The translations under genes were made by a program, and so were the position numbers. A DNA stretch of 64,000 nucleotides from a phage. The notes under the pieces were generated by a model that searched no databases, was not told the origin of the DNA, and saw nothing but the letters and a program-made list of their open reading frames with translations. Below are positions 56,961 to 61,497 of this stretch, in pieces. How positions within the stretch are numbered: position 1 is the stretch's first letter; the number at the start of each line of letters is the position of its first letter. Location: sequence record PZ154895.1; one strand, 5' to 3'.

Positions 56961-57123
56961 AAAGCAGATGTTTTTAATGAAGCTAATTGAAGAATATGCT
57001 AATGCAGTTTCTGACTATGAGTGTTCTTCTCGGGAAAGAGGTACAGCTTTCGCAAAGGAAGAAATGAAAATCATGGTTGATGCTCACACAAAGCTTCAGA
57101 ATTTTATTGAAAACGTCATTTAA
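56950..57123 (+). CDS. hypothetical small protein
   Basis: 57-aa ORF overlapping upstream stop; below the ORF-track cutoff. Confidence 0.35.
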   Translation: MKTEKQMFLMKLIEEYANAVSDYECSSRERGTAFAKEEMKIMVDAHTKLQNFIENVI

Positions 57124-57158
57124 TGGTTTACAAGTTGGCAAGGTTATGGTATAGTAAT
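57119..57158 (+). promoter_or_regulatory. T4-type early promoter
   Basis: -35 GTTTAC 57125-57130, -10 TGGTATAGT. Confidence 0.65.
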
Positions 57159-57290
57159 CTTGTCAACTGCCAAGGAGAAGAGAATGAAAGTTTTGTTTGT
57201 TGTGTATGTGATGATTCAATATAATTACCCGATGTTTACTTATAATCTGGTGAACAACATTATTGATATTATTCAAAGGAGTATGTAATT

Positions 57291-57848
57291 GTGGGTGAGT
57301 CGAAGAGAATCAATATGAAACGATTAGTATTAGAAGTTAGTCCGCTTTTTGGTGAATTGGCTATAGAAAAAGTAAATAACATGTATCGTTTGACACAAGA
57401 AGACGATATGCTGTATTTTACGCCTAGTGAAATCATTCATTTAACCCAAATTGAATATCCTTATACTGATAAAATAGTAAGCATCAATGATGAGCACAAA
57501 ATTCATTTTTATTCTTCATGCCCAGGATTTAATATTAACAGTGAGTCAATGTGTTTATCAGTTATCCATTGGGATAGTTTTATAGCTAAGATTAAATATT
57601 TTTATTATTCTAATGAAAGAAAACATAGTTTAAAATGGCTTAAAAATTGCAATGCTATTATTACTAACGCTTGCAATCAGAATGATGAAACTCTTTTAAA
57701 TGTATCAAAATGTTATGAAGAGGGAGATGTCTTAACTATTCGTCAAATTGACGATTTTCGATCACATATTGTTACATTTACCAAAGACGAAGCTATTGCG
57801 CTAAAGACTTATCTTGATTCTGTCATTCCAACTATGATTTCAAAGTGA
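57291..57848 (+). CDS. hypothetical protein, paralog A (GTG start)
   Basis: 185 aa; AGGAG SD 9 nt upstream of GTG; C-terminus LTIRQ...FTKDEAIALKTYLDSVIPTM homologous to the next ORF. Confidence 0.5.
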   Translation: MGESKRINMKRLVLEVSPLFGELAIEKVNNMYRLTQEDDMLYFTPSEIIHLTQIEYPYTDKIVSINDEHKIHFYSSCPGFNINSESMCLSVIHWDSFIAKIKYFYYSNERKHSLKWLKNCNAIITNACNQNDETLLNVSKCYEEGDVLTIRQIDDFRSHIVTFTKDEAIALKTYLDSVIPTMISK

Positions 57849-57854
57849 GGAAAT

Positions 57855-58376
57855 ATGTTTATTTCAAGTGAAAGCGGTTTAATTCGTGTTGAATTTAAAA
57901 ATGACATCTTCCTTATTCAAGGAGATGATATTATTAAAATGAGTTATGACGAAATCAAGAAAATTTGTCATGCTCTTGAAAGCCATGGAAAAGTAAATGC
58001 TACTATCGATATAGGTGATTTATGGGTGACACTTTATGAAGTATCCGAAGGATTTAACATTGAAGATGAAAATAACATCTTAGCTATTGATAAAAGAAGT
58101 GATTTGTTTGATGTGTTAAAAGTTTATGAACAGTCAAACGGTGGAAGAAAAGCTGCATTGATTTATCAAAAACCACATTCATGTGGAACTGCTTCAATCA
58201 TTTCAAATATTGAAGATGAAACTGATACTTATATGTGTGTTTTAAAGGCTGGTGGTGACCGTCATCCGGATTTTATTTCTATTCGTCAAAACAATGGAGA
58301 AATTTCATTATCAAAATCAGAAGCTGAAGCTATGATTAAGTATTTAACAACTGTTACACCTTCAATGAAAGGATAA
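57855..58376 (+). CDS. hypothetical protein, paralog B
   Basis: 173 aa; C-terminus ISIRQ...LSKSEAEAMIKYLTTVTPSM homologous to the previous ORF. Confidence 0.5.
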   Translation: MFISSESGLIRVEFKNDIFLIQGDDIIKMSYDEIKKICHALESHGKVNATIDIGDLWVTLYEVSEGFNIEDENNILAIDKRSDLFDVLKVYEQSNGGRKAALIYQKPHSCGTASIISNIEDETDTYMCVLKAGGDRHPDFISIRQNNGEISLSKSEAEAMIKYLTTVTPSMKG

Positions 58377-58378
58377 TT

Positions 58379-58840
58379 ATGATTATTAATGAAAGCTCTT
58401 GGCACTATAAATTATTCAAAATGTTTAATGATGAATGGAAACGACCTAAGACACTGTGCGCGTATTTTTGGTCTATTGTTATTCCTACATTTTTCGTTTC
58501 TTTTTTCGGATGTACTATACTCGCAGGTCTAACTATCATCTGTGCAGAAATCATACAGAAATGGCTTATTTTTGGTAGTTTATGGACTCTTATTCCATCA
58601 GCATTTATACTTGCCATTTTGCTTGTTTTACTTATTATTGGTTCATTTGTTATTCCTGCACAACTGCGTGAAAAATATAAAGATTATAAATGGAAAAAGG
58701 ATTATGCTTTACATGTAGAAAATATTGATAGGGCGTATAAAGGTTTACCTCCTATTCAACCTAAGAAATCTATTATCGTCGAATTTTTAAAAGCGCGTAA
58801 AGCTAAAGTATGTCCTGTTATTGAATATAAGGCTGAATGA
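58379..58840 (+). CDS. membrane protein (2-3 predicted TM helices)
   Basis: 153 aa with long hydrophobic segments; start 2 nt after previous stop. Confidence 0.5.
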   Translation: MIINESSWHYKLFKMFNDEWKRPKTLCAYFWSIVIPTFFVSFFGCTILAGLTIICAEIIQKWLIFGSLWTLIPSAFILAILLVLLIIGSFVIPAQLREKYKDYKWKKDYALHVENIDRAYKGLPPIQPKKSIIVEFLKARKAKVCPVIEYKAE

Positions 58841-59850
58841 TGAAAACAGTAATGAAAAGCTATTTTGGTAGTCATCTTTATGGAACTTCTACTCCAGAAT
58901 CTGATGTAGATTTTAAAGAAATCTTTGTTCCTCCTGCTCGCGATATTCTTATCGGAAATGTTAAAGAGCATATGAGTAAAAACACTAACAACACATCATC
59001 TAAAAACACTAAAGATGATATTGACCATGAACTATACAGTCTTAAGTATTTCTTTAAATTAGCAGCAGATGGTGAAACTGTAGCATTGGATATGCTCCAC
59101 ACTCCACCTGAGTTAGTGGTTAAATCTGATTTGCCTGATGTATGGAAGTTTATTCAAGACAATCGTTCTCGTTTTTATACGACTAACATGAAATCCTATT
59201 TAGGATATGTTCGCAAGCAAGCTTCTAAATATGGTGTTAAGGGTTCTCGTTTGGCCGCATTGCGTGATGTATTGAAAGTAGTTAATCAAATCCCTGATCA
59301 GTGGGTTGATTACCAAGAAGACGGTTCCATTAAGCAGCGTCGCACTAAAGTTGAAGATATTAAGCATCGTCTTCCAGAAAACGAGTTCTGTGAATGGGTG
59401 TTCCACAATCATGAGAAAACAGGCCCACAAACGTTCTATACTGTGTTGGGTCGTAAATATCAGACAACTCTTTCTCTTATTGAGCTTAAGCAGTCTTTGA
59501 ATAAACTTGATGCCGAATACGGTGAACGCGCTCGTAAGGCTGAAGCTAATGAGGGCATTGACTGGAAAGCTTTGAGTCATGCTTGTCGTGGTGGACTCCA
59601 ACTATTGGAAATTTACAAAACTGGTGACTTGGTTTATCCACTTAAAGATGCTCCATTTATTCTCGACGTGAAGTTGGGTAAACATCCATTTAAAACTGTT
59701 CAAGAGTTTTTGGAAGATGTGGTCGATCAAGTAGAAGCAGCATCCATTGAAGCTTCTAAGAACGGTATGCAGCAAAAAGTAGACATGGGTTTCTGGGATG
59801 ACTTCCTTGAGAGGGTTTATCTTGAAAACCACCGAAGTTATTATAAATGA
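58837..59850 (+). CDS. Pol-beta-superfamily nucleotidyltransferase-like protein
   Basis: 337 aa; N-terminal GSHLYGTSTPESDVDF fits the GS-x(9-13)-D-x-D NTase motif, with a candidate third acidic residue in VALDML. Confidence 0.55.
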   Translation: MMKTVMKSYFGSHLYGTSTPESDVDFKEIFVPPARDILIGNVKEHMSKNTNNTSSKNTKDDIDHELYSLKYFFKLAADGETVALDMLHTPPELVVKSDLPDVWKFIQDNRSRFYTTNMKSYLGYVRKQASKYGVKGSRLAALRDVLKVVNQIPDQWVDYQEDGSIKQRRTKVEDIKHRLPENEFCEWVFHNHEKTGPQTFYTVLGRKYQTTLSLIELKQSLNKLDAEYGERARKAEANEGIDWKALSHACRGGLQLLEIYKTGDLVYPLKDAPFILDVKLGKHPFKTVQEFLEDVVDQVEAASIEASKNGMQQKVDMGFWDDFLERVYLENHRSYYK

Positions 59851-59853
59851 TAG

Positions 59854-59879
59854 GGAGCCTTCGGGCTCCCTTTTTTTTT
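59854..59879 (+). terminator. intrinsic terminator after the nucleotidyltransferase gene
   Basis: hairpin gggagcc-ttcg-ggctccc followed by nine T. Confidence 0.8.
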
Positions 59880-59894
59880 GTTTAAAATGACGTC

Positions 59895-59936
59895 ACAAAG
59901 TTGTTTACTTCTATCGCAAAGCATATTATAATATAT
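59895..59936 (+). promoter_or_regulatory. T4-type early promoter
   Basis: -35 GTTTAC 59903-59908, -10 TATTATAAT, after a terminator hairpin. Confidence 0.65.
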
Positions 59937-59978
59937 GTGTAGTTAATTAATTGCTCTTTAAAAATTGAGGAGAATACA

Positions 59979-60269
59979 ATGCATATTTTAATGCAATGCC
60001 TTGGCAACAAAATTAATGATTTTAATCATAAGCGTGTTAATGATTACATTAAAGACAAACTTGAGATTAAAGACATACTTTTTAGAGGACTTACAATAGA
60101 GGAAGTGCTATCTTATAAGTTTGAAGTTAATAGGAGAATCAAATTTAAAAGAATAACTTCCTTTAGCAGTGAGTCTCATATAGCTGAAACGTTTGCAGCA
60201 GAACGCTATATGACTAATGCTTTAGTAGTGTTAAAAATGCAAACGTTTTCGACTATTCGACTGCTATGA
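59979..60269 (+). CDS. hypothetical protein
   Basis: 96-aa ORF with GAGGAG SD after an early promoter. Confidence 0.45.
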   Translation: MHILMQCLGNKINDFNHKRVNDYIKDKLEIKDILFRGLTIEEVLSYKFEVNRRIKFKRITSFSSESHIAETFAAERYMTNALVVLKMQTFSTIRLL

Positions 60270-60463
60270 TTGACATTTTAGAAAATTTAATCGCAATTGA
60301 AGAATCTGGCCAAACTGACGATGATAAGCTTAACAAGCTTTATGATAATCTTTGTATGGTAGATTATGAAAGAGAGTTTTTACTGCCAACTAATTCTGAG
60401 TTAATAGTTAAAAACATATATTTTGATAGCAAAAAGAACATGCATATAGTAGAAATGGAATAA
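60266..60463 (+). CDS. hypothetical small acidic protein
   Basis: 65-aa ORF overlapping upstream stop. Confidence 0.4.
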   Translation: MIDILENLIAIEESGQTDDDKLNKLYDNLCMVDYEREFLLPTNSELIVKNIYFDSKKNMHIVEME

Positions 60464-60495: not shown

Positions 60496-60528
60496 CTATC
60501 AACTACTGATACAGATTTGGAGAATAAA

Positions 60529-61497
60529 ATGAAAACTGTAACTATCAATAAGGGTATCTACTTTGGTAAAGAAATCTCTGGAACTTTTGAGCTCTTAGGC
60601 GAATGGTTCCCAGATAATGCTCCGGTAGATGCACAAGGAGATGGTAAAGTTTTTGTTGAAATTGACGGTAAACGTCGCGGTGTTTGGGTTTACAAATCAG
60701 ATATTTCATATGATGGTGTAAAAGTTGAAGAAGTTAAAGAATCGTATGAAGATATGAAAACCCGCATTAATAAAAGATTTAATGTTATGGGAATGATGAC
60801 GAACGGTATTATTAATGGAAATATTCGTTCATTAATTATCTCTGGCGCAGCAGGTATTGGTAAAACGTATTCTTTAGATAAAGCTTTAAATAAAGCAAAT
60901 GATATTGGATACATTGAATATAAAAGCATTAATGGTAAAATCTCTGGTATTGGTCTTTATGAGCAGCTTTGGAATAATCGTGAAGAGAATTCTGTCCTTT
61001 TGATTGATGATGTGGATGTTTTCTCTGATATGGACATTCTTAATCTTCTAAAAGCTGCTCTGGACACTGGAGAGACCCGTAAAGTCTGCTGGAGCACTGC
61101 GTCTTCTTACTTAGAAGAAAAAGGCATTGACCGTGAGTTTGAATTTAAAGGAACGATTGTTTTTATCACAAACGTTGACATTGACCGCGAATTAGACCGT
61201 GGTACTAAACTTGCTCCACATTTACAAGCATTAGTGTCCCGCTCAGTTTATTTGGATTTGGGTGTTCACACTAATGAAGAAATTATGGTCAGGGTTGAAG
61301 ATGTTATTCTTTCAACTGACATGATGCAAAAGCGTGGTCTTTCTGATGAAGAAACTTATAAAGCATTATCATGGATGAAAGTTAATGTTAATCGTTTACG
61401 CAATGTTTCACTGCGTACTGCTCTTTATCTTGCTGACTTTATTATGACCGACAAAAACGGTTGGGAAGAAATTGCTGAGGTTACTCTTCTGAAATAA
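60529..61497 (+). CDS. AAA+/P-loop ATPase
   Basis: 322 aa from MKTVTINKG; Walker A GAAGIGKT, Walker B VLLIDDVD; ORF-track start is an upstream TTG. Confidence 0.65.
   Translation: MKTVTINKGIYFGKEISGTFELLGEWFPDNAPVDAQGDGKVFVEIDGKRRGVWVYKSDISYDGVKVEEVKESYEDMKTRINKRFNVMGMMTNGIINGNIRSLIISGAAGIGKTYSLDKALNKANDIGYIEYKSINGKISGIGLYEQLWNNREENSVLLIDDVDVFSDMDILNLLKAALDTGETRKVCWSTASSYLEEKGIDREFEFKGTIVFITNVDIDRELDRGTKLAPHLQALVSRSVYLDLGVHTNEEIMVRVEDVILSTDMMQKRGLSDEETYKALSWMKVNVNRLRNVSLRTALYLADFIMTDKNGWEEIAEVTLLK

Follow-up and report, generated by a model that had tools for sequence, protein, structure and literature searches.

What is the task of a tightly packed early gene unit in which two related proteins and a membrane protein precede a nucleotidyltransferase (NTase)? 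The question is raised by positions 57,291 to 59,850 of a 64,000-nucleotide stretch of phage DNA (sequence record PZ154895.1; the whole stretch is called the window here), which a preliminary description made from the letters alone had read as a fixed module of four coupled genes. By comparison with known genomes, the locus is shown to belong to a T-even phage (a Tequatrovirus, not T4 itself) and to be its early unit mobD.2 - mobD.1 - mobD.1 paralog - membrane protein - nrdC.11. Taken as a whole, it is best explained as a catalogued T-even early unit whose NTase, NrdC.11, would be an RNA 3'-end repair enzyme of the RlaP family, a reading to which we assign a probability of about 0.6. The plus strand of the window corresponds to the minus strand of T4, and the features of the unit are as follows (lengths in amino acids [aa]).

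57127..57155, plus strand: sigma-70/T4-early-like promoter site, TTTACA-17-TATAGT with an extended -10 TG (10/12 consensus matches).
57184..57288, plus strand: mobD.2 ortholog, a hydrophobic peptide of 34 aa (91% identity to T4 MobD.2).
57291..57848, plus strand: gene A, y05I-family ortholog of MobD.1 (PF24449 and PF24448), 185 aa, predicted to be Pur-alpha-like with three beta-beta-beta-beta-alpha repeats.
57855..58376, plus strand: gene B, full-length paralog of gene A (from Pfam and a hidden Markov model [HMM] of A-type sequences only), 173 aa, absent from T4.
58379..58840, plus strand: gene C, membrane protein, phrog_944, 153 aa, absent from T4 (from hydropathy and the PHROG match).
58837..59850, plus strand: gene D, NrdC.11 ortholog, Pol-beta NTase of the RlaP family (PF10127), 337 aa (from orthology, Pfam and predicted fold).
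59852..59880, plus strand (stem-loop 59852-59871): intrinsic terminator with an 8-bp stem (six G-C pairs), a UUCG loop and T9 (-16.2 kcal/mol, z = -3.45).

Gene D is the only enzyme of the unit. Whether it was the ortholog of T4 NrdC.11 had been left undecided, and this is now settled by 98% identity over 336 aa; T4 NrdC.11 (NP_049709, annotated as "nucleotidyltransferase") also lies in the same position, 3' of mobD.1 and 5' of nrdC.10. Gene D matched PF10127 (RlaP) at 43.7 bits (cutoff of 23; E = 3.6 × 10−11), a family assignment that is precomputed for every listed gene D homolog, and it also matched phrog_388. The motif GSHLYGTSTPESDVDF is present in gene D, and residues G11, S12, D23-x-D25 and D85 were invariant in homologs down to 36% identity. 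This motif had been taken as the signature of minimal and cGAS/DncV-like NTases; the assignment to the Pol-beta type stands, but the motif is general to Pol-beta NTases and not specific to cGAS/DncV, and the narrower assignment found no support from models of cGAS/DncV-like nucleotidyltransferases (CD-NTases) or from the fold. An AlphaFold2 model of gene D (predicted local distance difference test [pLDDT] of 85.5) comprised an N-terminal alpha/beta NTase core, followed by an insert rich in beta strands (residues 155-209) and a helical bundle at the C-terminus (residues 214-336), with the Pol-beta carboxylates D23, D25 and D85 present, as expected for the NTase fold that had been proposed. The closest solved structures to the model were the Pol-beta NTases LinB and kanamycin NTase, while sequence searches of the PDB with gene D and with a profile of its family returned nothing significant. 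Together, family matches and predicted fold place gene D in the RlaP (PF10127) branch of the Pol-beta nucleotidyltransferases, within which it is divergent.

Much of what this placement implies has been published. NrdC.11 was classed as a COG3541 NTase in 2006 (PMC1524935). RlaP takes its name from an association with RNA ligases, and phage RlaP has been predicted to restore nucleotides removed by nucleases such as RloC (PMC7824862). A December 2025 preprint reported that the RlaP enzymes of Pseudomonas fluorescens and P. aeruginosa (PfRlaP and PaRlaP) add 1-2 nucleoside monophosphates (NMP) to an RNA 3'-OH in an Mn2+-dependent manner, with a preference for a cleaved-tRNA mimic and no action on DNA or protein; in its similarity network of PF10127, T4 NrdC.11 falls in cluster 5, separate from the Pseudomonas RlaPs (PMC12776372). 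NrdC.11 and the Pseudomonas enzymes have in common the Pfam family and the N-terminal core of GS, DxD and third carboxylate, and bacterial relatives of either type occur in RtcB or Pnkp operons. The NrdC.11 model, like RlaP, has a helical domain after the core, but only ~130 N-terminal residues can be aligned, and NrdC.11 is longer by ~70-90 aa and carries the beta-rich insert. Neither sequence nor fold searches of our PDB copy brought up a PfRlaP chain. The locus had been described as functionally uncharacterized, which holds for the phage proteins themselves and no longer for the NTase family, for which a predicted role and biochemical data on bacterial relatives have been published.

A scan of bacterial genomes recovered 77 loci with NrdC.11-type relatives, mostly alignable over nearly the whole protein at 23-54% identity and in a few cases partial. 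Repair-gene neighbors were found in 14 of the 74 loci without a phage-contig appearance, and full-length relatives at 30-41% identity to NrdC.11 were found inside RNA-repair operons. Such surroundings favor a role in RNA repair for the NrdC.11 type as such. In nine bacterial loci, a canonical full-length RlaP lies immediately 3' of the NrdC.11-type gene, and the two therefore are expected to have distinct, nonredundant activities; two neighboring enzymes of PF10127 suggest that labor is divided between them. As examples of such neighborhoods, a Chlamydiales contig (L062, 975-7836) reads Hen1 - Pnkp - NrdC.11 type - RlaP - RNA ligase, and a Methyloligella contig (L079, 864-7335) reads Ro60 - RtcB - NrdC.11 type - RlaP - RNase T-like.

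From the activity measured for Pseudomonas RlaP, the operons in which the bacterial NrdC.11-type relatives lie and the published prediction, we infer that the likeliest role of NrdC.11 is to restore nucleotides on host-cleaved tRNA before ligation. Residues D23, D25 and D85 would form a two-metal site, with which NrdC.11 would add one or a few untemplated NMPs to an RNA 3'-OH; likely targets would be the tRNA halves left by host anticodon nucleases, e.g., RloC, that also trim a nucleotide, and phage Pnkp and RNA ligase would then reseal the full-length tRNA. NrdC.11 would thus be a conditional counter-defense enzyme. The unit sits in the tk-nrdC region, which is dispensable and mosaic, and the stretch from nrdC.11 to mobD.3 is among the large fragments missing from viable genome-reduced T4 mutants (PMC9825161); a conditional role for nrdC.11 is suggested because that stretch is dispensable in these mutants. 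Of the two functions offered in the preliminary description, an anti-defense role is plausible, and synthesis of a nucleotide signal is very improbable, as the family is that of RlaP RNA repair and not of nucleotide signaling.

The two proteins encoded at the start of the four-gene stretch are of a different kind. Gene A is 86% identical to T4 MobD.1. Pairwise BLASTP gave no match between genes A and B and their global alignment reached 27% identity, yet both matched PF24449 (T4_y05I_N) and PF24448 (T4_y05I_C), with E-values of 1 × 10−21 to 1 × 10−38. Scores for the N- and C-terminal domains were 132 and 75 bits in gene A, and 113 and 83 bits in gene B (E = 8.6 × 10−33 and 1.8 × 10−23), all above the Pfam cutoffs (24.9 and 27 bits, respectively). 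Gene A, gene B and T4 MobD.1 share this two-domain layout, which Pfam describes as "y05I-like putative transcription factor". An HMM built from A-type sequences alone matched B over positions 16-175 (E = 6.7 × 10−17). The paralogy, noticed earlier from aligned C-termini, is real and by these matches extends over the full length of the proteins, beyond the C-termini.

The y05I family formed 51 clusters at 90% identity. In a profile search of a full library of 1.84 billion proteins it comprised 29 clusters at 50% identity, including standalone C-domain proteins of 65-87 aa, and no link to any cellular family was found; the family is tiny and apparently phage restricted. One metagenomic protein (P0137, on 6 contigs) is a natural fusion of an A-type N-domain with a B-type C-domain, most likely the product of recombination between adjacent paralogs that deleted the intervening sequence. 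Sequence searches of the PDB with A and B gave no significant match, and neither PADLOC nor NCBIfam gave a meaningful match for any of the five proteins of the unit.

The predicted model of gene A contains three beta-beta-beta-beta-alpha repeats (the third modeled with five strands), and repeats pair into a PC4-like domain of the PUR/PC4-like fold. This is the fold class of MRP1/2, the Whirly proteins, Pur-alpha repeat III, Borrelia Pur-alpha and PC4/Sub1, although identity between the y05I proteins and the Pur-alpha and PC4-like/Whirly class (PDB 3k44, 5fgo, 2gia and 1l3a) was only 4-12%. No Pfam PUR family match was found for the y05I proteins, which therefore are not PUR members by sequence, and an internal-repeat comparison of gene A with hhalign gave only a weak signal between repeats I and III (E = 9 × 10−4) and nothing for I-II and II-III. 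According to a 2020 review, the arrangement in which a domain of two repeats is joined by one further repeat was known only from Pur-alpha, in which the third repeat dimerizes (PMC7549692). Genes A and B are predicted to encode Pur-alpha/PC4-like proteins in which two repeats form an intramolecular domain; by analogy, they would likely form A-B heterodimers or homodimers via the third repeat, and their probable ligand is single-stranded nucleic acid or another protein. This prediction offers a starting point for work on the function of MobD.1, which is an early protein of T4.

Gene C has two long hydrophobic stretches (approximately residues 28-57 and 62-93), in keeping with its earlier description as a membrane protein, with basic termini and an isoelectric point (pI) of 9.4. 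Two motifs, an N-terminal INxxSWH and a C-terminal FLKARKxKVCP, are common to its aligned homologs in Mosigvirus, Moonvirus and Acinetobacter phages, and the conserved termini are predicted to be cytoplasmic. A pattern scan of the bacterial genome collection found no relatives of gene C. It is a phage-restricted candidate partner, and its gene nearly always directly follows the coding sequence of a y05I C-domain. A small zinc-finger protein of the DksA/TraR type is encoded repeatedly, in several genera, a few genes ahead of the membrane protein (L009, 2172-2429; L004, 3906-4172; L020, 2827-3093; L024, 2465-2722).

To what extent these genes travel together can be judged from their distribution. 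The 2.8-kb locus of the window had matches in 673 phage records, mostly Tequatrovirus phages of Escherichia, Shigella and Yersinia, and 429 of these records cover at least 80% of it, at identities of up to 97.6%. Counted separately in the phage collection, the genes were unequally represented (D, 1514 records; C, 922; A-type, 729; B-type, ~434, with B counted at ≥90% identity), and together with the absence of B and C from T4 this dismisses a fixed four-gene module. Among 21 diverse IMG/VR loci with a C-like gene, an NTase followed 0-1.2 kb downstream on the same strand in 15, and a y05I protein (full length or C-domain only) lay immediately upstream of C in 13; six C-like loci had no NTase within 3.5 kb. 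In an Acinetobacter phage, C and the NTase are one small gene apart, and in Aeromonas, Slopekvirus and Miami phages the NTase is found without A, B or C alongside. Several T4-like genera share the succession y05I C-domain, membrane protein, NTase, which marks the three as candidate partners. The NTase is the conserved anchor of the mosaic region, the most consistent pairing is that of y05I C-domain and membrane protein, and a four-protein machine A-B-C-D is possible. A further family of weakly interrelated proteins of ~170-200 aa with no Pfam match, absent from the window, occurs upstream of the NTase in five loci from Moonvirus, Aeromonas and Slopekvirus phages and two unassigned IMG/VR T4-like contigs (L009, 3483-4025; L020, 3989-4570; L024, 3993-4532; L003, 4487-4990; L005, 3795-4406); it adjoins the NTase in three of the five, and two small genes intervene in L020 and L005.

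The comparison with T4 is informative about genes B and C. T4 lacks both, and the mobD HNH homing endonuclease, known to lie between mobD.1 and nrdC.11 (PMC2988022), occupies their place directly upstream of nrdC.11, where the window has paralog B and membrane protein C instead. After the mobD.1 stop, T4 (NC_000866, ~6385-6300, minus strand; equivalent to window positions 57849-57870) keeps the ribosome-binding site of gene B and its first five codons (MFISS), and past MFISS the T4 sequence diverges into the mobD homing-endonuclease cassette. Because the ribosome-binding site and five codons of B persist, the T4 lineage must have lost B and C on arrival of the mobD cassette, and the MFISS remnant is the scar of this two-gene replacement. 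As A and D persist in T4 although B and C are gone, any functional link of the first three genes with the NTase is not obligatory. T4 NrdC.8 and NrdC.7, which resemble genes B and C, respectively, in size and order, were considered as their orthologs and rejected, as BLASTP found no match in either case.

The architecture of the unit in the window is compact. The four open reading frames (ORFs) of the preliminary description were recovered at the same coordinates with small gaps or overlaps (A/B, +6 nucleotides [nt]; B/C, +2 nt; C/D, a 4-nt ATGA overlap), and a fifth gene, the short mobD.2 ortholog, had been missed. AAGGAGAAGAGA lies upstream of the ATG of the mobD.2 ortholog, and gene A starts with GTG, 8 nt downstream of AAGGAG. 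Of the flanking signals that had been proposed, the strong terminator is well founded and carries a terminator annotation in phage JB75. The promoter is a predicted one, being a consensus match only (37 such sites were found in the scan, against 29 ± 5 expected). T4 has a conserved copy of 57127-57155 in front of mobD.2. Within the genes, two further promoter-like sites and a single weak terminator-like one were attributed to chance from the shuffle expectation, and the T4 late-promoter motif TATAAATA was not found within 57000-59900. Cotranscription of the unit from mobD.2 through nrdC.11 is likely. Beyond the terminator, the interval between the nrdC.11 and nrdC.10 orthologs (window 59904-60463) contains two small ORFs (59979-60269, 96 aa; 60266-60463, 65 aa), neither with a Pfam match, that have a promoter-like site of their own at 59904-59932; in T4 this interval is a gap of only 114 bp without the two ORFs. 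At the position of T4 nrdC.10, the window encodes a 326-aa P-loop/AAA protein (60517-61497) that weakly matches models of STAND-type NTPases (nSTAND3 at 20 bits, under the cutoff).

Several observations weigh against NrdC.11 as an RNA repair enzyme of the RlaP type within such a unit. Gene D covers only positions 23-142 of the 249 of the RlaP model, i.e., its N-terminal half, and a comparison by hhalign of this family with six canonical RlaPs aligned only 93 N-terminal columns (E = 6.5 × 10−4, probability of 27%); as no more than this 93-residue catalytic core aligns, the activity measured for RlaP is not simply transferable to NrdC.11. The tandem arrangement in bacteria likewise implies that the activity of the NrdC.11 type is distinct from that of canonical RlaP, 60 of the 74 bacterial loci have no repair neighbors, and no RNA-repair gene is adjacent in the phage locus. 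Gene order is broadly conserved in T4-like phages, which makes synteny weak evidence of function. For the paralogs, the C-domain of the gene A model has a pLDDT of only 56-79, and both proteins have an acidic pI (5.7 for A and 4.8 for B), which is unusual in nucleic-acid binders and sets them apart from the Pur-alpha/PC4-like class.

Some of these points would suit an NTase with a substrate other than RNA, such as AMPylation in the manner of an MNT antitoxin, modification of a small molecule as by ANT/Lnu-like enzymes, or synthesis of deoxy-oligonucleotides as by Hailong HalB, each another way to neutralize or mimic host defense. The C-terminal half of NrdC.11 cannot be aligned with canonical RlaP, and its tandem occurrence with RlaP in bacteria would fit a different activity. 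We nevertheless regard such a substrate as improbable: identity to Hailong HalB and the KNTase/Lnu-type NTases, which have other substrates and partners, was 9-15% with no sequence-family relationship detected and similarity residing mostly in the shared NTase core, RlaP was the only significant family match, and the bacterial contexts are RNA-repair operons and not toxin-antitoxin or resistance loci. Gene D as the MNT of an MNT-HEPN toxin-antitoxin pair was rejected on its score against the MntA model (13.2 bits; cutoff of 60) and its length of 337 aa with a fused bundle, and its sole Rx5H (R326-H332), the one candidate for the HEPN motif Rx4-6H, is not conserved in homologs. That gene D is of the cGAS/DncV type and, helped by the paralogs and the membrane protein, would make or edit a nucleotide second messenger is very improbable, with only the generic GS...DxD motif and the early accessory-gene context in its favor. 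The PADLOC library holds models of known and candidate defense systems, according to the description of the tool, and CD-NTase models are among them. Gene D had no PADLOC match at E ≤ 0.1 and no match to a CD-NTase family of Pfam at E ≤ 1, and its predicted layout is an NTase with a HEPN-like bundle and not the bilobal fold of cGAS and OAS; gene D was rejected as a CD-NTase on both counts.

A different kind of alternative leaves the chemistry of gene D in place and ties the proteins together. In an integrated module, the paralogs would dimerize via their third repeats, dock on the cytoplasmic tails of C and capture RNA (e.g., cleaved tRNA) for the NTase, so that all would act as one membrane-associated RNA-processing or repair unit. 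The tight gene packing with the ATGA overlap of C and D, the downstream NTase in 15 of 21 C-like loci and the upstream y05I gene in 13 of 21, the near adjacency of C and NTase in the Acinetobacter phage, and the persistence of the neighborhood within an otherwise mosaic region all point this way. We consider it unlikely, however, as B and C are missing from T4 and its close relatives, which nonetheless keep A and D, six C-like loci have no NTase within 3.5 kb, the Aeromonas, Slopekvirus and Miami NTases stand without A, B or C, and unrelated proteins of ~180 aa separate C from D in other genera. A bolder form, which is a distinctly long shot, would make y05I the first non-eukaryotic case of the Pur-alpha layout, with paralogs that heterodimerize, dock on the tails of C and hand damaged tRNA to NrdC.11, a membrane-tethered RNA-repair hub against nucleotide-trimming nucleases such as RloC. 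The reading we prefer remains that of a catalogued early unit in which NrdC.11 would repair RNA 3' ends.

The components of the unit are catalogued genes, and the family of the NTase and its predicted role are already known from the literature. Of use here are the orthology calls, the occurrence of the NrdC.11 subtype in RNA-repair operons, the predicted Pur-alpha-like fold of MobD.1 and its paralog, and the evidence from T4 that two genes gave way to a homing endonuclease. If NrdC.11 does restore nucleotides after cleavage by anticodon nucleases that excise the wobble nucleotide, it would complete the classic tRNA-repair pathway of T4 Pnkp and Rnl1, and it would explain how T-even phages could beat RloC, a nuclease thought to be repair-proof.

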